From a virus: DNA of 64,000 bases. The DNA is taken from IMG/VR virus record IMGVR_UViG_3300009008_000003; one strand, 5' to 3'. Each line of letters begins with the position of its first letter. The stretch's first letter is position 1. The notes beneath the pieces are model-generated. The model worked only from the letters and a program-made list of their open reading frames with translations, was not told the origin of the DNA and ran no database searches. A program made the position numbers and the translations under genes. Shown in pieces: positions 44,004-56,494 of this stretch.

Positions 44004-44714
44004 CTAGTGCTTTATAAATACTACATCTTTAACGGTCTTTCCGCTAAAGCATAACTTACATTTTTCACATGCCCCAGCCATTTCGGCTTTGCCGTTGGTG
44101 GCTGGACATACAAATGATCTCTTGGGCAGGTCTTTATCCTTGTCCCAAGGGCCGTAAGCTAATTTAAGCTTATACTTTGTGGCAAATTTCTTTGCCTCTA
44201 CTATATTATAATCATCTATTGATACAAGTAAACTAAAGTTGGGTAACTTTACTATATTCTTATACCCTAAATTAAACGATCTTGTATAAGCCCAGAATGT
44301 AACATCAGGGCGAGACTTAATAACTTCTATCCAAACGGATATTGAAAATTGACTGTGGAAATCTCCGGATTCGTGTATACGGAATATCTTTGCTTTTTTA
44401 GGTATCATTTTACCCAAAGAATCAGCGCAAGGTTTGATACCTTTTTTACCCAAGGCTTCAAACTGCACCAACAAATTCCAATTCATTAGAAAGAGAGACT
44501 GTACGTTATAGAACACATGTCTTCCTTTCATGGCATAACAACCTTCACAGGCTTTTGTTTCGCCAGGACAGGAATACTGCGCACTCGCGGGAAGCGAGAA
44601 AGCGCATCCTTTAGTCTTAGATATTTTCTCCGGGGAAGATGCTTTAAATTTATCTATAACAGTTCCACATTTAGCTAAACTGTTCATTTTATTAATATAT
44701 GTATTAGTTATCAT
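44004..44714 (-). CDS. GP88-like Cys-rich (Fe-S/radical-SAM-like) phage protein
   Basis: FSLP...CPG...CEGCYA, FRIHESGDF, FWAYTR, CPAT...CEKCKLC. Confidence 0.7.
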   Translation of the reverse strand: MITNTYINKMNSLAKCGTVIDKFKASSPEKISKTKGCAFSLPASAQYSCPGETKACEGCYAMKGRHVFYNVQSLFLMNWNLLVQFEALGKKGIKPCADSLGKMIPKKAKIFRIHESGDFHSQFSISVWIEVIKSRPDVTFWAYTRSFNLGYKNIVKLPNFSLLVSIDDYNIVEAKKFATKYKLKLAYGPWDKDKDLPKRSFVCPATNGKAEMAGACEKCKLCFSGKTVKDVVFIKH

Positions 44715-44763: not shown

Positions 44764-45243
44764 TTAAACATCGTCTTCGTCTTTGTTTTTCTTATATGTT
44801 GGTTTATTAAGCAAATCGCTTATTCTTGTATTCATTATGCTTTTTTCGAAAGCGTCGTTTGCTTCCCTAACTGCGTCTATTGCCTGGTCACCAAATTCAA
44901 ATGTTCTTGAGGTAGTACCCCCACCGCCATAAATTTCAGGGGGCGAATCAGGCGGATCCCAGGTTTTCATACCAGGATCATGTCCTAATTTTTTAAACAT
45001 CTCTTCTAGTTCGTTATTTGTTATTACCTCGGGGGAAGCTTTTTTAATTATTTCCATTAATTCATTAATTATCTTAGCTTTGTCGTCTACTAAAGGCATC
45101 GTTAATTCTATTCCCTCCCGCGCCCCTGCAAGCTCTAAAACATCCATTAATAATAATTCACAAAGAGCTTTAGCCCAATCTGGGATATCTGGATACTCTG
45201 CCCCTTCTATATAATCTTTTGTATAATCGCCGTATTCATTCAT
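44764..45243 (-). CDS. NEYG-motif family protein 4
   Basis: Begins MNEYGDYTKDYIEG; the ATG overlaps the upstream stop (ATGAATGA). Confidence 0.65.
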   Translation of the reverse strand: MNEYGDYTKDYIEGAEYPDIPDWAKALCELLLMDVLELAGAREGIELTMPLVDDKAKIINELMEIIKKASPEVITNNELEEMFKKLGHDPGMKTWDPPDSPPEIYGGGGTTSRTFEFGDQAIDAVREANDAFEKSIMNTRISDLLNKPTYKKNKDEDDV

Positions 45244-45463
45244 TGTTATCACTTGCTAATCTAGTAGTTACATTTAGGTAGGATACCGGGGCAGGCAATT
45301 TACAAGTCATGGTAATATTTAAGGTGGAGCCAGACATCGTTGCTTCGGAAAAACTAAATTGAGGAGTGCCTGCGCTTATACCAGACATTGTGAAAGCATA
45401 AGCCGGTTCTGGGGCTTCTTTGCCTTCGACAAAGTTTTCTATATAATTTCCATACTCATTCAT
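45236..45463 (-). CDS. NEYG-motif family protein 3
   Basis: Begins MNEYGNYIENFVEG. Confidence 0.6.
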   Translation of the reverse strand: MNEYGNYIENFVEGKEAPEPAYAFTMSGISAGTPQFSFSEATMSGSTLNITMTCKLPAPVSYLNVTTRLASDNNE

Positions 45464-45761
45464 GATTACTTTGCCCAATAACTGGTTTTAAAGCTGGTAA
45501 ACTATCAACCTCTATTACTTGTTGCACAGAAATTTCTTCTTTACCAATTTTTGCGCTAACGGTTACTCGAACGAATCGTCTTTCTTGTGACTCCATACCG
45601 GGCACATCATATTGCTCTATTTTGATATTCTGGCCCATATCTATCTGCTCCAATGCCCAACTCTTCAGGTCTTCTTTCATTCTATTTAATACATAATAAG
45701 CTCTTCCTTCTATGGCCTTTAACTCATTATCAGAAAAAAAATGGCGATTCTCCCTCCACAA
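45456..45761 (-). CDS. Hypothetical protein
   Basis: 101-aa ORF in the operon, start uncertain. Confidence 0.5.
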   Translation of the reverse strand: MWRENRHFFSDNELKAIEGRAYYVLNRMKEDLKSWALEQIDMGQNIKIEQYDVPGMESQERRFVRVTVSAKIGKEEISVQQVIEVDSLPALKPVIGQSNHE

Positions 45762-45798
45762 ACTTTTCTGTGTAGTCTCCGTATTCGTTACTCATGGT

Positions 45799-46200
45799 TT
45801 AGGACTCCGCATCTGTATAGGTTACAGCTGGTCCAGCGTTAGTATTCCAAGTGTATGTTATACTACCATCTATTGCGTTGGAGCTGTAGGATGTCCATAT
45901 TGCCCCAGCTGCAGGTTGAGTGGTAATCATGCCAGAGTAGCCAAATGCAATATCTGTTACCGAGACTGGTGGTACTATTTCATTTAATTTTTTTATTAAT
46001 TCATTTATTTTATCTTTGTTGGGATCATCTTTATCTACCTCAGCTAACGATATTACGAAACCCTCACTGAGTGATAAGCCTACACTAGCTGCCCCCATCA
46101 GTAACAGCTCACTTAATATTTGTTTATCTTCGCTTAACTCAAGGAAATCTTCTCCTTCTATGAAGCGCTCTAAATAATTTCCGTATTCGTTTTCACTCAT
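45799..46200 (-). CDS. NEYG-motif family protein 2
   Basis: Begins MSENEYGNYLERFIEG; shares ELLLM...INEL with 44764-45243. Confidence 0.65.
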   Translation of the reverse strand: MSENEYGNYLERFIEGEDFLELSEDKQILSELLLMGAASVGLSLSEGFVISLAEVDKDDPNKDKINELIKKLNEIVPPVSVTDIAFGYSGMITTQPAAGAIWTSYSSNAIDGSITYTWNTNAGPAVTYTDAES

Positions 46201-46435
46201 CTATTTCCCAAATGTCCATGTTAAATTTTGCTTGAAATTCTTTCTCCATAGCTCCTATGCAACTGTTTGTGTGGATTGTTAGGTCGTTATCATGCGCGTT
46301 TTTTAAGTCCTTGGCAAGCAACTCTCGCATTTTTCTGTAAGTAGTAGTTTCCCCTTTCCAGGTTAGCACCTCACAATTAAAGTTTAGTGGGCTGCCTTCA
46401 GTATATTCATTTATATAATTTCCGTATTCATTCAT
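46193..46435 (-). CDS. NEYG-motif family protein 1
   Basis: Begins MNEYGNYINEYTEG. Confidence 0.65.
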   Translation of the reverse strand: MNEYGNYINEYTEGSPLNFNCEVLTWKGETTTYRKMRELLAKDLKNAHDNDLTIHTNSCIGAMEKEFQAKFNMDIWEIDE

Positions 46436-47121: not shown

Positions 47122-47147
47122 AAAAAAAGGGGTACACGCAGTACCCC
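47122..47147 (-). terminator. Rho-independent terminator ending the JAB-E1 unit
   Basis: Minus strand GGGGTAC-TGCGT-GTACCCC-TTTTTTT. Confidence 0.8.
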
Positions 47148-47155
47148 ATATCATG

Positions 47156-47767
47156 CTACCCAAAGTTGTGAACAAATTTACTAAAATATTGGTCACCTCG
47201 TATCATGTGCAGAAAAATTTGAGTGCCTATAGTTGCGACTATTTTGTTTCCTTGTTGTATGATTCCCTGGTCTAATTCAAATTGTCGTTGGCAACTCATA
47301 TCTTCTTTATCTGTTTTTACGGTCGCCATTAGCGATTCTGTTGTTGTTCGTTCATGTGATGTAAATACCGCAATAGCTGTGCCTTCAGATCTCATATCAA
47401 TAAACTTAAATTTATGTTTATCCCATAGCTCGAACATATGCTTTCTGAATTTTGTGTTGTCCACGCAGCAGATAACATAATCATAGCCTTTATCTAGATA
47501 TTCTTGTAGGTTTTCTACTTTCTTAACCTCTGCTTTGAATATTTGCAGATGATCTTTCCACCTATCCTTTAAAGCTTCTACTTTATGCTTACCGATATCA
47601 TCTTTGGTGAATTTTTGATATTTTATATTCTTTTTTTCAACCGAATCGTTATCCACCATTGTAAAAATATATTCATCTGGAATTTGTTCGGCAATTATTA
47701 ATTCCACAATTTCAAACAGGAACCGGCTACCAATACCGCCCGCCCCTACTACTAATACTTTTTTCAT
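47156..47767 (-). CDS. ThiF/MoeB/E1-like adenylyltransferase
   Basis: VLVVGAGGIGS, VDNDSVEKKNIKYQ, GKHKVEAL, DYVICCVDN, candidate catalytic Cys in MSCQ. Confidence 0.88.
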   Translation of the reverse strand: MKKVLVVGAGGIGSRFLFEIVELIIAEQIPDEYIFTMVDNDSVEKKNIKYQKFTKDDIGKHKVEALKDRWKDHLQIFKAEVKKVENLQEYLDKGYDYVICCVDNTKFRKHMFELWDKHKFKFIDMRSEGTAIAVFTSHERTTTESLMATVKTDKEDMSCQRQFELDQGIIQQGNKIVATIGTQIFLHMIRGDQYFSKFVHNFG

Positions 47768-48228
47768 ACTATTTCTACCTCTACTTCGATAAAATCATCA
47801 AGCCCTCTATCCCATTTCCATAAATGTGGCACACCATCAGCTCCTCCAAGAATACAGTATGGCATATCTAAACCTTTGCCGAGTCTAAATGCATTCTTAT
47901 CTATTTCTGATGGAATCCCTAAACTGCGCGGGTGGTTATGCACTGCTATTGGATGCATATTTGATTTGGGATTCATGGCAGAGGTGGTGAACAATACGTT
48001 CATCATTTGCTGAGGATGCATTTGATAATCAATAATATTGGTTTCTAGAGGTTTGATGTTATCCACCCAACTAAAATTCTGAACAGCCATTCTATGTCTG
48101 TCAGCGTCTTTGTACCGCCCTGTAAAAAATCCACAAAATTCTCTCCCATACATAGTATCTAAAATGATAAGATGCTTTATTAAAGATTCTGGGATACTTG
48201 CTTTTCTTATACTTAGTGTCTCTAACAT
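47764..48228 (-). CDS. JAB/MPN+ metallopeptidase
   Basis: Upstream Glu in REFCG and an exact HxH-x7-S-x2-D (HNHPRSLGIPSEID). Confidence 0.88.
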   Translation of the reverse strand: MLETLSIRKASIPESLIKHLIILDTMYGREFCGFFTGRYKDADRHRMAVQNFSWVDNIKPLETNIIDYQMHPQQMMNVLFTTSAMNPKSNMHPIAVHNHPRSLGIPSEIDKNAFRLGKGLDMPYCILGGADGVPHLWKWDRGLDDFIEVEVEIV

Positions 48229-48247
48229 GTGTTTTCCTTATACTTAT

Positions 48248-48276
48248 AAAAATAGGAGGGCCATTTCTGGCCCTCC
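48248..48276 (-). terminator. Terminator-like hairpin between the Ubl and JAB genes
   Basis: Minus strand GGAGGGCC-AGAAAT-GGCCCTCC-TATTTTT. Confidence 0.6.
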
Positions 48277-48304
48277 CTGGTAGCGATACTTTATGTACCC
48301 GCAA

Positions 48305-49012
48305 TTAGATGCGTAAAGCCTTGGCCAGTTGGTGAGCATGTTGCTGCACAGTGCCTTCCAGCTGTTTCTTGATAGCTGCTAGAATATGTTTACGGGCATT
48401 TAATACATCGTAACGTTCTTCTGTACTTACGCGTAAGGTGAGAGCCTTATGCGCGGAATCGAAGCCTATTACAACCTGGGCGGCGGGTTTGATAGCATCT
48501 GCAAAACTTGCATTCACTGATGTCCCTTTGGCCCAGTCTCTGGTACACATAGTGTCTTCACCGATAGATTCCATTACAGAATTATATTCTTCGGAAACCA
48601 GGTTATTAAACCCAGTTTCTATAAGACCGTATAAAACAGATCTCCACATGAAGATCTCTTTTACTCTTTTACCGTTGGCTACGATGTCGATAACATCGGG
48701 CTCTGTTCCTAATTTTATCGCCAATACAGTATTGCCAGTGTATTTAAAATCATCTGCGACGTTAAATACCACAGCATATTGCTCAGCACCCCCTTCTAAC
48801 GCAGCTGAAAGCAAGATGCTTTCTGCTCTCTCTAATTCTCCGGTAGAAATCTGTCCCGGATCCTTTAGTTCCCCATCCAGAAATACCCACTTGTCTTCAT
48901 CGTCTGCGATTGCTTTGATTTTTGTTAATGCGGCCTCTGGCAGCATATCGTATGGGGTATCACCTTGTGAGCTCATCACTGCGAAATGGATTAATTTTGT
49001 TTCTTTTGCCAT
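48305..49012 (-). CDS. Ubiquitin-like (beta-grasp) precursor: 75-aa domain ending in LEGG plus ~160-aa C-terminal extension
   Basis: GG at residues 74-75 (ILLSAALEGG); adjacent to JAB and E1. Confidence 0.6.
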   Translation of the reverse strand: MAKETKLIHFAVMSSQGDTPYDMLPEAALTKIKAIADDEDKWVFLDGELKDPGQISTGELERAESILLSAALEGGAEQYAVVFNVADDFKYTGNTVLAIKLGTEPDVIDIVANGKRVKEIFMWRSVLYGLIETGFNNLVSEEYNSVMESIGEDTMCTRDWAKGTSVNASFADAIKPAAQVVIGFDSAHKALTLRVSTEERYDVLNARKHILAAIKKQLEGTVQQHAHQLAKALRI

Positions 49013-49033
49013 TAGTACTTATTCCTTAAATTA

Positions 49034-51217
49034 TTATAGTGTTGTAACTTTATGCGCAACTCTTGAATCGTTTGCAACAGTTAACATTCTTGCTACGAGT
49101 ATATCTTGTCCCACGACCCTATGCCCTTTGTCTACAATACAGATATGACTCTTATCTTCTCCGTATACTTCGTGGTTTCCTTCTCTATCTACATAGTAAG
49201 TTTGTTTCTTACCCTTAACTTCGTACGCATTTATGGTTCCATTGTACGTTGTGTTTATTTGCACTTCTTTGGCTTTTAGCATTTTTACTGTGCTTTGTAA
49301 TAATTTTTCTGAGCGTTTAAGTGCTTCTTTGTAAGTTTTGATACCCTCTTTCATCAGATCTATTATTTTATCTGCTGGGATATCGACGATTTTTTCATCA
49401 CTAAATACTGAGGTCATATCTTGCAGTGAGTACGACTGTCGTAATTTTGATTTAAAACTGTTTATATTTCTAATTCTATATTTTGCGTTTTTGAGGCCTT
49501 TAACGTAATTCTTTCCTTTGGTTCTGTACAGGTGGAAAGTATAATTAATGTGCTGGTTGAAGAAGTTATCGTAGTAGTTAACTGAAATGCCTGTAGCTAT
49601 TAGTTTGTGTATAGCTATAGAACAGGATGTTATAGATTTTAGAAATGCGTTGAAAGTGTCATCCGAATCATAACAAATCATTGTTTCTATAACTTCGCCT
49701 AGTTCAGATATGTTAACTCTGATGTCGTTTATAGTTAATCTTCCAATAGTTTTTCCGGAATCGCTAGTCTTGTTTGTTTTTGCCACCTTAGCTGTTATGG
49801 TACCAACAGTTATGTCAAAGGATGCGGTACGACTTTTTACCATGCTTTGCAAATATTGTGCAACGGCTTCTAATACATGATTAAAATTAACATCTGCTAG
49901 CCCAGTTGATCTGTATCCATTTATTTTATTTCTTAACCAGGCTCCGATGATATCTTCATCAACGTCTACTGTGCCATGTTTCATGTTCTCTACTTTTATG
50001 ATTTGATTTTCGTAAGTAAGAATCTTATCTTCGAAAACCATATCATTGAACACTAGTTTTGATTTGTCCTTCAACCTTGTTTTTAGGTTCTTTTTTATAG
50101 AAGTATTCAGCTCTTCTTCTTTTTTCTGTTTTTCTTGAGCTATTAATACTGGAAACAGTGCTTCTTCTAATTCGGAGGTTTTTATCAAAATGGAGTTAGC
50201 TGCTCCTACATGATTAATGTAGGCGTCTATTTGTTGATTCCAATTTACAGCTTTTTTGCACTTTAACATTGTGTCTATATCAAAATCATTAAAGTCTAAA
50301 TATAACGTATTGTGATGCCTATTATCATAGTCATCCTGGTGCAGATAAAGTCTTCCTAGATCAATATAATTGTAATCAACAGTGTTTGCTTTAAACTCTA
50401 AATTTTTTAATGCCAGGTGTTTTCTGAGATTTGCATAGAACTCTTCCGACCCAACTTCTAATTTACGATATCTATAATTATAGGCGGCGCTCGATATTGA
50501 TGCTACCAACGCTCTTCTTATATCGTCTTTTTCTGCTATTCTGATTATTATATGAGGCGAAGAAACATAATCTCCACAATCATTTAACCGATATAAGATG
50601 TTAAGTTGGTCGTCAGTTAATTCTTCTATCTCTGAATATAAAAATCCTTTATCAGTGAGAATTTCCTTCGTGTTATTCAGCCTAAGATCTATAGATACTC
50701 GTTGGTTCATCCCTGCAGTCAGTTTTTGTATTCCATTATTATTATGATAATTATCATTTACACTGCAATATGATAATAAGTTTTTTAATACCTGTAGATC
50801 TTTTGTGTCTTGTTCTGCGTTTAGAACTTTTGTAGACCACCCAATAGAATAATAATGATTAATGCTTAAGTCGTTGCCCCATTTGTCTTTCTTTTCTTCA
50901 CCTTTTCCGTGCGGAGACAAGGTTACCTTAAAAGTATTTTTTATTTGGTGGGGTCTATAGTTGTTTATATTAACTTCTACTTCATCTTCAGTTACGTAAG
51001 AACAGCCTACTACTAATGGGGAATCATTGAGTTGATAGTCCTTAGTAATAGTTACAACATAATTATCTTCGAATAAAGGTTGTATTTTTTTTATATAAGC
51101 TTGTATAACTTCTACTTCTTTATATAAAGAGGTAATGCGTCTTTTGTGATTGAATTCATAAAGACTGGCCATAGTTCTTAATTGTGTCTCGTTTAAACGG
51201 CTTTTATCATTGTACAT
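49034..51217 (-). CDS. Large hypothetical protein (727 aa) heading the Ubl cassette
   Basis: ORF; C-terminal HICIVDKG...DILVARML...NDSRVAHKVTTL segment. Confidence 0.65.
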   Translation of the reverse strand: MYNDKSRLNETQLRTMASLYEFNHKRRITSLYKEVEVIQAYIKKIQPLFEDNYVVTITKDYQLNDSPLVVGCSYVTEDEVEVNINNYRPHQIKNTFKVTLSPHGKGEEKKDKWGNDLSINHYYSIGWSTKVLNAEQDTKDLQVLKNLLSYCSVNDNYHNNNGIQKLTAGMNQRVSIDLRLNNTKEILTDKGFLYSEIEELTDDQLNILYRLNDCGDYVSSPHIIIRIAEKDDIRRALVASISSAAYNYRYRKLEVGSEEFYANLRKHLALKNLEFKANTVDYNYIDLGRLYLHQDDYDNRHHNTLYLDFNDFDIDTMLKCKKAVNWNQQIDAYINHVGAANSILIKTSELEEALFPVLIAQEKQKKEEELNTSIKKNLKTRLKDKSKLVFNDMVFEDKILTYENQIIKVENMKHGTVDVDEDIIGAWLRNKINGYRSTGLADVNFNHVLEAVAQYLQSMVKSRTASFDITVGTITAKVAKTNKTSDSGKTIGRLTINDIRVNISELGEVIETMICYDSDDTFNAFLKSITSCSIAIHKLIATGISVNYYDNFFNQHINYTFHLYRTKGKNYVKGLKNAKYRIRNINSFKSKLRQSYSLQDMTSVFSDEKIVDIPADKIIDLMKEGIKTYKEALKRSEKLLQSTVKMLKAKEVQINTTYNGTINAYEVKGKKQTYYVDREGNHEVYGEDKSHICIVDKGHRVVGQDILVARMLTVANDSRVAHKVTTL

Positions 51218-51220
51218 TAC

Positions 51221-51604
51221 TTACCTTTTAAAATTATCGTGCTTGCAGGCAATGGCTACTTTGTATCCATTATCTTTGGGCCAGGTTGATATTTTCGTGC
51301 CCACTAATTTAGCAGGCGTACTTACACTTACAAAATTTAATAGCTGAACTAGCGTACTTCGCGAGTCTAGCTTCCCTTCTGGGTCTCTGGATATCCATAA
51401 TCCTTTGTGAGTCGGCTCTTGTGTTTTATAGTCTATTACCCATGCTTCGTCTATCTGGTAATCAATACCGCCAACATCAGAGCAAGTTAAAACTACTTTT
51501 GTTGCGTTTTTACTACTGCCGGCGGTTTGTACTATTTTTGTATCAACTGCAATTATTTCTAGGTCTTTCTTTGGAGAACCAATTTCAGTATCTAGTATTC
51601 CCAT
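51221..51604 (-). CDS. Hypothetical beta-rich protein (possible OB-fold)
   Basis: AAGGAG RBS before ATG 51604. Confidence 0.55.
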   Translation of the reverse strand: MGILDTEIGSPKKDLEIIAVDTKIVQTAGSSKNATKVVLTCSDVGGIDYQIDEAWVIDYKTQEPTHKGLWISRDPEGKLDSRSTLVQLLNFVSVSTPAKLVGTKISTWPKDNGYKVAIACKHDNFKR

Positions 51605-51614
51605 GTATGTCTCC

Positions 51615-52100
51615 TTAATTTTTATTATCTGTGCTGCCGAAGCCGCCTGCACCGCGTTCTGTTTCTGTTAATTTTTCTGTCCATTCGAATTTTGCATCTA
51701 TTCTATGGTGCAGCACAAATTGTGCTATTTTTTCTCCAAGGTCTATGTCTATGGGGGTTGCCCCGTGGTTTGCTAAAACTACGCTGACTTCTCCTCTATA
51801 GTCTGGGTCTATAACCCCAGCTTTTATAAAAATATTTTCTCGAACTGCTAACCCGCTTCGTTCAGATATTTGAACGTAATAATCATGTGGTATTTCTAGC
51901 GATATACCAAGAGGAGCTTTCTTTTTACTATATCCTGGTATTCTAAAACTAGTTGTGGAAAATACGTCGAAGCCTACGGCGGTTGGGGTTGCTTGCAGGG
52001 GTAGCTGTGCCCTGGGATTATTTTTTAAAACTTTAACCTTGAGTGGTTTTAGACTTATCCCTTTGCTCGTCATATTTGTCGATTGCTTCGTTTCTTTCAT
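51615..52100 (-). CDS. dut: Trimeric dUTPase
   Basis: AVGFDV, ERSGLA, GVIDPDYRGEV, KIAQFV, TERGAGGFGST. Confidence 0.95.
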   Translation of the reverse strand: MKETKQSTNMTSKGISLKPLKVKVLKNNPRAQLPLQATPTAVGFDVFSTTSFRIPGYSKKKAPLGISLEIPHDYYVQISERSGLAVRENIFIKAGVIDPDYRGEVSVVLANHGATPIDIDLGEKIAQFVLHHRIDAKFEWTEKLTETERGAGGFGSTDNKN

Positions 52101-53607: not shown

Positions 53608-54382
53608 TTATTAGTAATTTTTTTATTTTTTCTTTATTTAAATTGAAATACACGTTATTAATTTTATCATAGGTGAAAGCTTCTTCTATCACTTTTTCGA
53701 TGTCTATAATATTTTTTAAATCTTTGATATCGTCTTGTTCAAACAGGTGATTGGTTGTTATCTGGGTTATGGGCTTTAGTTTCGAGATTAAAAAGCCTAA
53801 AGCAGCTCCGTGGCTAATTCCATAAAAACCTGTTATTGGGTAGGATAGCGCGTGTAATAGATTGGTACCTGTTATCTCTATGGCCCCGCCTGCTAAAATT
53901 CCAGCGCCTACAATAAGTATATTAGTAGGGTAACCGGTAAGAAGACTCATTGCATCGGTCGCTTGTATAGCGCTATGATTAGTGATATTTTTAGAAAGTA
54001 AGCTATCTATACAATGGGCTATTATATCAAATTTTGTATCCGCCCATACCTGATATGGTACAGTTTTTAAATAGTTTTCAATTATTTCTACTGTTTTTGG
54101 TCTGTGTCTTTTTATGCTATGTTTTCTATGTTTATCCCAGTACACCGCCCAGGAAGTAGAACTTGCGCCTGCTCCGGTAGTAGGGTAACAAGTGATGGGA
54201 TTCTTTGCCAATATTTTGGCGGTATCTATAACTGCCCCACCCCCGACAGCAACTACGTCTTCTTCGCTGTCAATCTCTGCCAAAAGAGAAATATCTGGAG
54301 CTTCTGTTACTATTCGTGCGCGGTCGTATTCAGGTAGTAAATCTCTGGTAGATTTAGAACATACGAGTAATGTATTATTCAT
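53600..54382 (-). CDS. Iron-containing alcohol dehydrogenase, likely phosphonoacetaldehyde reductase (shortened)
   Basis: VGGGAVIDTAK, YPTTGAGAS, DIIAHCIDS, HALSY...SHGAA; directly downstream of ppd. Confidence 0.8.
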   Translation of the reverse strand: MNNTLLVCSKSTRDLLPEYDRARIVTEAPDISLLAEIDSEEDVVAVGGGAVIDTAKILAKNPITCYPTTGAGASSTSWAVYWDKHRKHSIKRHRPKTVEIIENYLKTVPYQVWADTKFDIIAHCIDSLLSKNITNHSAIQATDAMSLLTGYPTNILIVGAGILAGGAIEITGTNLLHALSYPITGFYGISHGAALGFLISKLKPITQITTNHLFEQDDIKDLKNIIDIEKVIEEAFTYDKINNVYFNLNKEKIKKLLINE

Positions 54383-54839
54383 TTAATTCCCTTTTTATTA
54401 TTACAGCATTTGTGGCGCCTTCAAGAAGTACACGGGCTTTTTTGCCTTCTTTGTTTATTTTTATTATGGAAGTAATCCCAGGATAGGTTCCTTCTAAAGG
54501 AGCACATGCGTAGCCACCTACAGATTCATGGCACCCGTTATCTAGAATATATACAAACAAATTATCCGGAGCCTCGTCTCGTATCGTGTGGGTTATTCCT
54601 AAATGCATAAGCAGGGCGGCATCTCCGCTTATTACTACTACGGGCTTGTTTGTGTTGAGGGCCATACCCAAACCTATACAAGGAGCCAGTCCCATACTGC
54701 CCTGCATGTAGAATATGTTTTTGTTGTGCGGGTACTTATCGTACATCGCCCTTGATATATAGCCCGTGCTAGTGATGTAAATAGCTTTATCCCCGTGTGT
54801 AGAATAAATATGAGTTAATGCTCGATCTCTACTTAGCAT
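54375..54839 (-). CDS. ppd: Phosphonopyruvate decarboxylase, TPP-binding (beta) subunit
   Basis: FYMQGSMGLA...IGLGMA...SGDAALLM...LDNGCHESVGG. Confidence 0.85.
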   Translation of the reverse strand: MLSRDRALTHIYSTHGDKAIYITSTGYISRAMYDKYPHNKNIFYMQGSMGLAPCIGLGMALNTNKPVVVISGDAALLMHLGITHTIRDEAPDNLFVYILDNGCHESVGGYACAPLEGTYPGITSIIKINKEGKKARVLLEGATNAVIIKRELNE

Positions 54840-55218
54840 TATTACTACCTTTCACAATAATGTAATTATCGTAATTAATTAGTGTAAGTAAGGACTCATC
54901 TACTTTGCCCATAACCGCATGCTGGGGGAGAGAATGTCGATGTCCGATTATTAGTAATGGTTTTATATTATGAGGTATACATAAGCTTGTTAGCGGGTTT
55001 ATTGTGTTGCCCAAGCCGGAATTTTGCAGGTATACGCAGCTTTTCTTCCCAGCCAACTCAGCCCCAAAAGCAATGCCTATGGCTTGTCCTTCATTAGCGG
55101 CTATTATGTGTTTTATTTCGCTGTCTATTATTTCGTCTATAAGAGGCTTTAGCCCGCTGTCCGGAACACCTACAAAGAAATTATAGCCCCTGTCAAGTAA
55201 ATGTTGTAATTTAATCAT
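54829..55218 (-). CDS. ppd: Phosphonopyruvate decarboxylase, N-terminal (alpha) subunit
   Basis: FFVGVPDS...[12 protein letters not shown]...[17 protein letters not shown]. Confidence 0.85.
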
Positions 55219-56494
55219 GAGGTATTAACTTTAATATTTCTTTAATTGGTAAGCAAAGATTATTAGCTTCCCAAGATCTTTTATGTTTTAGTATAGAAGT
55301 TGCTGTAGTTAGCATAGCGGGGTATGAGCTACGCAATAAATGATTAGCATATATAACTATATCTACGCCCATGCTAATTAGCTCTTCTTCAGTAATAGTG
55401 TTATAGGTAGAAGGGACTACTACTAAGGGTACTTTTATTTTAAGCTTCTTGTACTCGTTACAAAATGCTTGGATTTCATCGGGTTTGGGGCTCTTGCTGT
55501 GTATCATAATACCATCGGCTCCGGCCTTGATATAAGCTTTAGCTCTTTTTACGGCGTCTTTTAGTCCTTTGCCCAATATAAAACTTTCTATTCGAGCTAT
55601 TATCATAAAATCTTTTGTGATTAATGACTTTTTACCTTCTAGTATTTTATAGCTAAACTCTTTTATGGTATCTTGTTTCTGCGAAGACGTGTCGGCATGT
55701 AGAGAATTTCGTTTATTACCTATTTTATCTTCTATTATAACTGCGGAAACTCCTAGCCTTTCTAAGTGCCTAACAGTAAATTTAAAATGTTCTACAAGAC
55801 CTCCGTTGTCTGCATCTACTATCATAGGCTTTGTAGTTACGTTAAAGATTTCATTTAGGGTTTGATTGATGGTAGTTATATCTACATATTGGATATCTGG
55901 TTTACCTTTTGACGTAGAATGAGTTAAGCTGCTTAGCCACATTCCGTCAAATTCACTTCGTTCATGCTGTACCTTTTCGACTATTAGGCCAGTTAACCCG
56001 TTATGTACTTCTAATATTTTAACAATAGGCTTTGCTTCGATTAGTCTTTTAAGAGTTTTTATTCTGACATTGGGAGTTATGCCGAGGTCCTTTTCATAGT
56101 TTTGTAATTTTGTAGATGATATATCTGAGGTATATGGTACATCTATAACCTGGCCGCCCCATTCGCTTAGTTTGTCTATAACAGCTTGTCTGGTTTGTTT
56201 TTGTACTCCTTTTTTCCAATCATCTCCGTGTACGACATAATCTGGTTTTAATAGTTCTAAATTTGGTATATAATCCAGGGTAGTTTGCGGCACTACCTTA
56301 TCTATGCCTTTAATATTTTCTACTACTGTTTTGCGCTGCTCATAGTTCAGCACGGGTAGTCTTTTGTAGCTAGCAATAGCTGCGTCGGTTAGTAATCCTA
56401 TGGTAACACTGCCATGCTGCCTGGCTACTTTAATAATATTTAGGTGTCCGTGGTGTATTATATCCGCACACATCCCAATGTATACAGTTTTCAT
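55211..56494 (-). CDS. pepM: Cytidylyltransferase-phosphoenolpyruvate mutase fusion
   Basis: N-domain [10 protein letters not shown]...VVHGDDW; C-domain with the PepM signature EDK-x5-NS ([10 protein letters not shown]), [20 protein letters not shown]. Confidence 0.93.

Follow-up and report, generated by a model that had tools for sequence, protein, structure and literature searches.

We have analysed four closely packed minus-strand genes at positions 47122-51217 of the window, a 64,000-nucleotide stretch of viral DNA from IMG/VR record IMGVR_UViG_3300009008_000003, and we put at roughly 60% the probability that they form a self-contained phage module for protein tagging, composed of an E1 adenylating enzyme, an E2-like protein, a ubiquitin-like (Ubl) tag and a JAB peptidase. 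The genes encode proteins of 727, 235, 154 and 203 amino acids and belong to the 189-kb complete record, with direct terminal repeats, of a large uncultured aquatic phage, which carries only one copy of each cassette part. An earlier reading of this DNA (the original prediction) had described a large protein, a Ubl precursor with a 75-residue N-terminal domain ending in LEGG and an extension of about 160 residues, an intact JAB peptidase (HxH-x7-S-x2-D), a ThiF/E1 protein with GAGGIG and a downstream cysteine, and a closing terminator. The open reading frame (ORF) list and a hairpin search recovered the four-gene set, the motifs and the terminator in place, and alignments of relatives bore out the JAB and E1 motifs in particular. 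The invariant Gly-Gly of the tag and the four-gene synteny, found in about 100 loci, place the arrangement far beyond chance.

To describe the distribution of the cassette we scanned IMG/VR and JGI metagenomes, which gave 8 + 25 + 68 loci from marine, lake and sediment viromes. This survey of gene neighbourhoods indicated that the gene for the 727-residue protein (the partner), the tag gene and the E1 gene stay together, usually with the JAB gene, in about 100 loci. Essentially every locus that is long enough has the usual order of partner (640-870 amino acids), tag, an optional inserted gene, JAB and E1. The partner gene adjoins the tag gene in nearly every locus, and 49 distinct cassettes contain both a tag and an E1. 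The order is changed in a few cases, the E1 gene preceding the tag gene in L063 and L076 and the tag gene preceding that of the partner in L089, L096 and L098, and in divergent loci the cassette is kept together amid unrelated neighbour genes. Since the set survives both a changed order and unrelated neighbours, the genes appear to be functionally linked rather than to share mere ancestry.

The tag precursor is a 235-residue protein encoded at 48305-49012 (minus strand), its gene starting 21 bases past the stop of the partner gene. LEGG occupies residues 72-75, with 160 residues after it, and the putative ubiquitin-like tag (residues 1-75, ending L-E-G74-G75) is encoded at 48788-49012 (minus strand), with the Gly-Gly codons at 48788-48793. 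An exhaustive HMMER search of 1.84 billion representatives returned 62 matches including the query, that is 61 relatives; a word-indexed search returned a single relative, with 57% identity, the same architecture and a conserved Gly-Gly. Stand-alone proteins of 70-89 amino acids make up 21 of the 61 relatives (10 end exactly at Gly-Gly and 11 at Gly-Gly plus 1-13 residues), five are tandem repeats with Gly-Gly at the end of each unit, resembling polyubiquitin, and about 35 continue C-terminally for another 40-255 residues. Among 57 aligned relatives G74 and G75 never vary, M1 and W42 are also invariant, and K41, S14, G17 and A28 are nearly so. Because stand-alone and tandem forms exist and the Gly-Gly is invariant, residues 1-75 represent an independent module defined by its Gly-Gly end, as had been proposed. 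The family thus carries the feature by which ubiquitin-like modifiers are recognised, a Gly-Gly that is free, or can be exposed, at the end of the domain.

The fold of the tag was approached in several ways. In the ESM Atlas, residues 1-75 match viral clusters of 78 and 88 amino acids with template modelling (TM) scores of 0.76-0.82, and the neighbours at low TM include ubiquitin, Rad60-SLD and ThiS clusters. An AlphaFold2 (AF2) model of the 235-residue protein, made from an alignment of just 2 sequences, has a predicted local distance difference test score (pLDDT) of 32, too low to establish a fold, though its order of helices and strands from residue 26 on fits a beta-grasp. With phmmer, residues 29-79 align gaplessly to ubiquitin with the Gly-Gly in register, at only 0.2-3.3 bits per repeat. 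PHROGs holds no family for the tag.

The 160 residues after the Gly-Gly (48305-48787, minus strand) consist of two copies, the first of them weak, of a beta-beta-alpha module of about 80 residues with a conserved C-terminal helix, which we call 'ext'. A hidden Markov model (HMM) of this module, ext80, matches residues 159-235 at 71.8 bits and residues 96-148 at 13.3 bits; no relative was found in Pfam or PDB. L037 and L039 likewise have tag and module in one protein, whereas in L044, L063, L075/76 and L081-83 the module has a small gene of its own within the cassette. Given these separate genes, the fusion is one form among several in which a recurring fifth component is arranged, and not a sequencing artefact. 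The 160-residue extension is presumed to be the leaving group of JAB cleavage. In three loci an extra gene of 226-273 amino acids lies between the tag and JAB genes (L006 8370-9191, L007 8321-9010 and L010 8291-9097); it is unrelated to 'ext', and no known family was found for it.

The next gene (47764-48228, minus strand) encodes a JAB/MPN+ (JAMM) metallopeptidase of 154 amino acids and of the minimal JAMM1 type. Its motif consists of E30, H97-N-H99, S107 and D110 (E...HxH-x7-S-x2-D), the zinc and catalytic motif by which JAMM proteins are defined, and none of the five residues E30, H97, H99, S107 and D110 varies among the 25 members aligned. The protein alone scores 24.9 bits with Pfam Prok-JAB, where the cut-off is 25. 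A profile of the 25 members compared with PDB matches the archaeal desampylase P. furiosus JAMM1 (5lda) at 6.9e-18 over its full length, followed by BRCC36, Rpn11 and AMSH; with the NCBIfam desampylase model the score is 26.5 bits, below the cut-off of 130. The JAB gene is present in 43 of the 49 distinct cassettes. All 13 cassettes with residues after the Gly-Gly have it, and in all six cassettes without it the tag ends in Gly-Gly. The original prediction had assigned the JAB to maturation of the precursor, and as a sole function this is too narrow, since 30 of the 49 cassettes keep the JAB though their tag already ends at Gly-Gly. The retention of the JAB beside such tags therefore points to tag removal as well as trimming, and suggests removal as the more general role of the enzyme. 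With regard to the variants that lack a detectable JAB, in L053, L065, L074, L088 and L103 the tag is directly followed by E1, and four of these tags end in GGG (DMLGGG or DILGGG).

The E1 gene (47156-47767, minus strand) overlaps the JAB gene by 4 bases and encodes a minimal ThiF-type protein of 203 amino acids that carries no extra domain. It matches Pfam ThiF at 67.8 bits (1e-18), above the cut-off of 28.1, and hhalign aligns it to E. coli ThiF with a probability of 96.4%, pairing D103 with ThiF D127. The nucleotide loop is G8-A-G-G-I-G13, and the residues invariant in 27 aligned members are G8, G10, G11, D39, D41, N47, K62, D103, R108, D124, R126, C159 and R190. Cys159 (codon 47291-47293), the downstream cysteine of the original prediction, is 56 residues from D103, and in ThiF 57 residues separate D127 from the crossover-loop Cys184. 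The protein thus shows the features that define the ThiF/MoeB/E1 superfamily: the GxGxxG loop, an acidic residue after beta-2, the conserved Lys, the Asp of the DN motif (D103-N104) and a Pfam score above the cut-off. Compared with PDB, the E1 profile matches the ThiF-type 9egc best (1.3e-8), followed by UBA3, UBA2, UBA6, MccB, UBA5, ThiF, MoeB and Cap2; a literature search gave no paper identifying PDB entries 9egb-d. In PADLOC the E1 matches the models for CBASS Cap2, an E1-E2 protein, over their E1 half only, at 7.7e-9. Among NCBIfam models PRTRC ThiF, ThiF, MoeB and the SAMP E1 are all matched far under their cut-offs, the best being PRTRC_ThiF at 56 bits against 144.75.

The partner (49034-51217, minus strand) is a multidomain protein of 727 amino acids outside known families, without a match in Pfam, PHROGs, NCBIfam or PADLOC. 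A word-indexed protein search, made with the single sequence and with a 9-sequence profile, returned only the partner itself. An alignment of 46 partner sequences shows nine invariant positions (R234, D286, C515, G543, Y674, C693, R710, D717 and T726); Cys693 is present in 46/46 sequences and Cys532 in 43/46. The AF2 model made from this alignment has a mean pLDDT of 74, rising to about 90 over residues 380-720; the ESM Atlas model (pLDDT 0.38) was too poor for use. Towards the C-terminus the AF2 model places a helix at residues 615-647, four strands, Cys693 and a helix at residues 705-715, with a pLDDT of about 90.

We compared the AF2 model with 48,161 PDB representatives by VIA-align and considered the top 50 rows. 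Eight of these cover residues 634-723 (49049-49318, minus strand), and seven of the eight are chains of the UBC superfamily. Z-scores over this region are 4.9 for the Vps23 UEV domain (86 residues aligned), 4.5 for VPS37A, 4.5 for the Tsg101 UEV domain, and 4.0 for both FANCL and Ubc9. Bacterial E2 proteins were matched as well, namely BubB (9eav_D 242-361, identified as BubB from PMC11601596) with a Z of 4.6 and the E2 domain of Cap2 (residues 9-149) with a Z of 3.9. The Foldseek-based lists for the model further contain RWD domains of Ctf19/Mcm21; Foldseek against PDB gave nothing at E<=1e-3, and Pfam gave no E2, UEV or RWD match for the C-terminal domain. Cys693 (codon 49139-49141, motif Y-I-C-I-V-D-K) lies between the last strand and helix 705-715 in the context Y-P-x-G-x-Y-I-C-I-V-D-K, which by eye recalls the HPN...G-x-I-C-L-D loop of E2 enzymes. 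We give weight to the E2-like reading despite the low Z-scores because the matches converge on one superfamily and Cys693 is invariant, and on the strength of the model we lean towards an E2-like role for this domain. The absence of a recognisable E2, as originally reported, therefore stands at the level of sequence, with no E2 match in Pfam, NCBIfam or PADLOC among the cassette proteins, and probably fails at the level of fold, where residues 634-723 with Cys693 resemble UBC/UEV/RWD domains. The 727-residue product had also been suggested as a target of conjugation; given the predicted UBC/UEV/RWD-like end with its invariant Cys693, it is more likely a carrier or ligase.

Other comparisons of the partner gave less. 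Eight of 35 partner C-terminal domains match Pfam DUF7737 below the cut-off (best 3.1e-4), a family that also occurs in Deinococcus and Bacteroides control genomes and on which a literature search found nothing. A reading of residues 403-514 as an SMC/RecF-head ATPase was rejected, since the root-mean-square deviation was 6-7 A and no Walker A motif is present. In BFVD three viral proteins of 416-452 amino acids (A0A516M0H5, A0A516MG04 and A0A516LSW3) resemble the partner model with E-values from 2e-7 to 5e-5, and these may be shorter versions of the partner. By sequence comparison the tag, partner and extension families are absent from Pfam and without a match in PHROGs.

If the cassette is a tagging module, its action would begin with cleavage of the 235-residue precursor by the JAB after G75, giving a 75-residue tag with a free Gly-Gly and the 160-residue extension. 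There is precedent for this in BubCD, whose JAB cuts the BubAB fusion right after a conserved Gly (PMC11601596). The E1, in which the relevant residues are conserved, would adenylate the Gly-Gly carboxylate and probably load the tag on Cys159, and from there the tag would pass to Cys693 of the partner, in the domain with the E2-like fold. The roughly 630 partner residues before the UBC-like domain, including the invariant Cys515, may select the substrate or relay the tag, much as in an E2-E3 hybrid. The tag would then be joined to one or more phage or host proteins during the replication phase, and the same JAB would remove it again, which would explain why the JAB is kept beside tags that end at Gly-Gly. 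We hold more tentatively the full form of this scheme, a thioester cascade of large aquatic phages in which an E2 forms the end of a new-family protein of about 700 residues, acting as an E2-E3 hybrid with Cys515 as relay, and in which host or phage proteins are reversibly tagged during replication.

Several observations weigh against the tagging module. Profile searches with the tag in Pfam and PDB gave no match, whether to ubiquitin, ThiS or the Pfam Ubl families, hhalign of the tag with E. coli ThiS gave a probability of 0.4%, and the beta-grasp fold of the tag is no more than a candidate. The E1 family lacks both of the canonical ATP-binding arginines of the MoeB/ThiF type: the sequence reads N-L-x-Y50-Q, at least 90% of members having Tyr where NLxRQ has Arg, and the protein begins at beta-1, without the N-terminal helix and its arginine finger. 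The UBC match of the partner rests on a predicted model with a Z of just 3.9-4.9, for which the tool itself warns of common arrangements; there is no HPN motif near Cys693, and a zinc site made up of C515, C532, H537 and C693 is an alternative. Finally, the association between the presence of a JAB and the tail of the tag is not significant (p about 0.1-0.14).

We therefore considered three other explanations, each of which accounts for fewer of the conserved features than the tagging module. According to the first, the cassette serves carrier-protein biosynthesis: the tag would bear sulfur in thiocarboxylate form, or else an acyl or aminoacyl group, which the 727-residue protein would use to modify DNA, RNA or a small molecule, and the JAB would trim the precursor or release the product, in the manner of Mec+ on CysO and of QbsD on QbsE. 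The E1 fits such a function, being a single-domain protein of ThiF/MoeB type whose best curated matches are PRTRC ThiF, ThiF and MoeB, which hhalign aligns to ThiF, and which has its conserved Cys at the position of ThiF Cys184. Sulfur-carrier operons coupled to a JAB are established (Iyer et al. 2006, PMC1779556, rows 4a-4e), and the genes that surround the cassette belong to DNA metabolism (dUTPase, RecU and DNA polymerase). However, neither in the window flanks nor in the divergent loci is the cassette accompanied by a rhodanese, a cysteine desulfurase, a sulfurtransferase or any further enzyme of biosynthesis, whether inside it or adjoining it. The original prediction had pointed to the lack of thiamine, molybdenum cofactor (Moco) or tRNA-thiolation genes nearby, and we likewise saw none in the cassette or its flanks, nor any sulfur-transfer gene. 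The partner appears from its model to end in a UBC-like domain, the tandem Gly-Gly-ended tags resemble polyubiquitin and not sulfur carriers, and the low hhalign probability of the tag with ThiS argues in the same direction. Overall, a carrier function is unlikely.

The second explanation is a closed system, in which the 727-residue protein or the released extension is the only substrate of the tag and conjugation acts as an on/off switch of activity or assembly, as proposed for the Ubl of lambda tail assembly. Almost all loci have the partner gene right beside the tag gene, and the partner is large and multidomain with conserved parts outside the UBC-like domain. Auto-modification is common for E2-like proteins, and we counted this in favour of a closed system. 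Against it, the two invariant cysteines and the UBC-like end of the partner look enzymatic, unlike a passive target, and its nine invariant positions include no lysine, so that we regard self-directed tagging as improbable. Also improbable is a role in counter-defence without any phage-directed conjugation, in which the JAB would strip host marks (those of Bil on phage tail proteins, or the cGAS conjugates made by Cap2) and the tag and E1 would serve as decoys: host Bil and Bub (PMC11601596), and host CBASS likewise, do use the same enzyme classes against phages, and the PADLOC Cap2 models match the phage E1 with their E1 part (7.7e-9), but a decoy would not need an invariant E1 active site, E1 Cys and partner Cys across 46-51 divergent lineages, five distinct cassettes without a JAB retain tag, E1 and partner, and the JAB has its nearest relative in archaeal JAMM1 rather than in Cap3 or BilC.

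Two hairpins lie in and after the gene set of the window. Between the tag and JAB genes, 48254-48277 (minus strand) forms the stronger of the two, a hairpin of 10 pairs, seven of them G-C, followed by a T-run. This is a candidate internal terminator or attenuator, and its position after the tag gene could yield more tag than enzymes. The cassette is closed by a terminator-like hairpin with a T-tract at 47122-47147 (minus strand), whose stem-loop at 47129-47147 reads GGGGTAC-TGCGT-GTACCCC, then TTTTTTT. The region has nine terminator-like sites, compared with 3.6 +/- 1.8 in shuffles.

Upstream of the partner gene is a gene for a protein of 143 amino acids (51221-51652, minus strand) with a conserved I-S-D-x-W...G-L-W pattern, for which no Pfam or PDB relative was found. 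It precedes the partner in most loci and is absent from L044, L053, L063, L082, L089, L096 and L098. We rejected it as a core part of the cassette, as it travels in one sub-clade only and is missing from divergent cassettes. On the other side of the cassette, between it and genes for a sigma factor and DNA polymerase, lies a gene for a Cys-rich protein of 236 amino acids (44004-44714, minus strand) that matches Pfam GP88 at 9.6e-30. Four successive small genes at 44764-46435 (minus strand), encoding 80, 133, 80 and 162 amino acids, share the starting peptide MNEYG[ND]Y... and differ in the remainder; none has a Pfam match. Judged by their ORF translations, genes at 54375-56494 (minus strand) resemble those of phosphonate biosynthesis, with a 427-residue protein like a cytidylyltransferase/PEP-mutase followed by two decarboxylase-like halves, and they adjoin glycosyltransferase-like genes.

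Searches elsewhere returned little. In 50,697 deposited phage genomes, searched as DNA and as protein, nothing related to the cassette DNA, the tag or the JAB was found; the only matches were generic ThiF-like genes, in crAss-like, Bacillus, Acinetobacter, Salmonella and Vibrio phages, whose neighbourhoods are without this tag and partner. A pattern scan of one genome per species over 185,579 prokaryotic species gave no relative of the partner. No loci were returned when the tag-fusion protein and the E1 were each used as a single sequence for locus scans, nor when the tandem-tag protein P0015 and the fused-tag protein P0005 were used. A literature search, of incomplete coverage, found no paper describing the cassette. 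Two of the phages with ThiF-like genes are worth recording. In crAss-like phages, as in the uncultured cr126_1 (MT774391; L001 3382-5648), a 416-residue protein annotated with a metalloprotease domain is encoded directly upstream of a 337-residue ThiF-like gene product, in the replication module. This may be another phage pair of protease plus E1, and the tag and partner HMMs have no match at the locus. In Acinetobacter phage vB_AbaM_ME3 (KU935715; L106 1736-7747) a protein annotated 'PRTRC system protein A', a 350-residue ThiF protein, a 72-residue protein ending ...IIVLG and a 549-residue protein of no known function are encoded together, which looks like a different, PRTRC-like set of small protein and E1 in a cultured jumbo phage.

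Were the tagging module confirmed, ubiquitin-type signalling would be an offensive or regulatory tool of phages and not a matter of bacterial defence alone. If the cassette conjugates proteins, its targets would reveal what the phage must tag during replication, and it would offer a very small E1 (203 amino acids) and JAB (154 amino acids) for mechanistic work, together with a new E2-bearing architecture.

With respect to known systems, the cassette is not among the operon classes 4a-6e of Iyer et al. 2006 (PMC1779556). Among the closest is Bil (BilA Ubl, BilB E2, BilC JAB and BilD E1; class 6d of Iyer et al. 2006), a bacterial anti-phage operon that unites the four activities proposed here: a Gly-ended tag, an E2-type carrier with a catalytic Cys, a JAB peptidase and an E1. 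Bil and the cassette are both without a separate E3, and the Bil E2 is thought to choose the target (PMC11601596). The cassette differs in being encoded by a phage rather than the host, in having a tag family that is not in Pfam, and in placing its E2-like domain at the end of a protein of about 700 residues of no known family. Its E1 is a single adenylation domain of 203 amino acids, not an IAD-AAD-CYS protein, and matches PADLOC BilD at 12.9 bits over residues 2-111 only. The PADLOC models of BilA, BilB and BilC have no match, and the cassette does not classify as Bil. In type I Bub (6E.1; BubAB Ubl-E2, BubCD JAB-E1 and BubE) the tag is also made as a fusion, which the JAB cuts after a conserved Gly, as is proposed here. 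The Bub E2 has a minimal UBC fold without the last two helices, with BubB among the best matches to the model of partner residues 637-723, and the E1 is minimal and of homodimer type, as in the cassette. Bub uses Ser/Tyr oxyesters and has no catalytic Cys, whereas Cys159 of the E1 and Cys693 of the partner are invariant here; in addition, the cassette tag is fused to the non-E2 module 'ext', its JAB and E1 are separate proteins, and no Pfam match to the DUF6527 protease of Bub was found in the cassette, which thus falls outside Bub.

Similar parts occur in archaeal sampylation (SAMPs, UbaA and JAMM1/HvJAMM1) and in Thermus TtuB/TtuC, where, as in the cassette, a short modifier ending in Gly-Gly goes together with an E1 of ThiF type and a minimal JAMM peptidase that stands alone. 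An E2 is dispensable for sampylation, whereas here the tag genes are always linked to a predicted UBC-like domain with an invariant Cys; SAMPs also serve to carry sulfur, and their E1 bears a rhodanese domain, which the cassette does not have, and the NCBIfam scores lie well below the cut-offs (26.5 against 130 for the desampylase, 31.2 against 450 for the SAMP E1). The donor and biosynthetic enzyme that mark sulfur-carrier systems (ThiS/ThiF, MoaD/MoeB, CysO/MoeZ/Mec+ and QbsE/QbsC/QbsD) are found neither in the flanks nor in the divergent loci. The PRTRC cassette (ParB-related, ThiF-related) of plasmids and integrative and conjugative elements is likewise borne by mobile elements, and of the NCBIfam models PRTRC_ThiF matches the E1 best; NCBIfam finds no ParB and no PRTRC A-F proteins among the four cassette proteins, which are therefore not a PRTRC set. 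Type II CBASS (the E2-E1 fusion Cap2 and the JAB Cap3) has an E1 domain and a JAB in common with the cassette, and its minimal UBC-type E2 resembles the modelled end of the partner. There the C-terminus of the CD-NTase is conjugated and no separate tag exists, whereas the cassette has a dedicated tag and no CD-NTase, with the E2-like and E1 parts on different proteins, and does not qualify as type II CBASS. Overall, ubiquitin-like conjugation in bacteria has so far been characterised in Bil, Bub and CBASS Cap2/Cap3 as a weapon of the host against phages, and the cassette described here would represent the same logic on the side of the phage.

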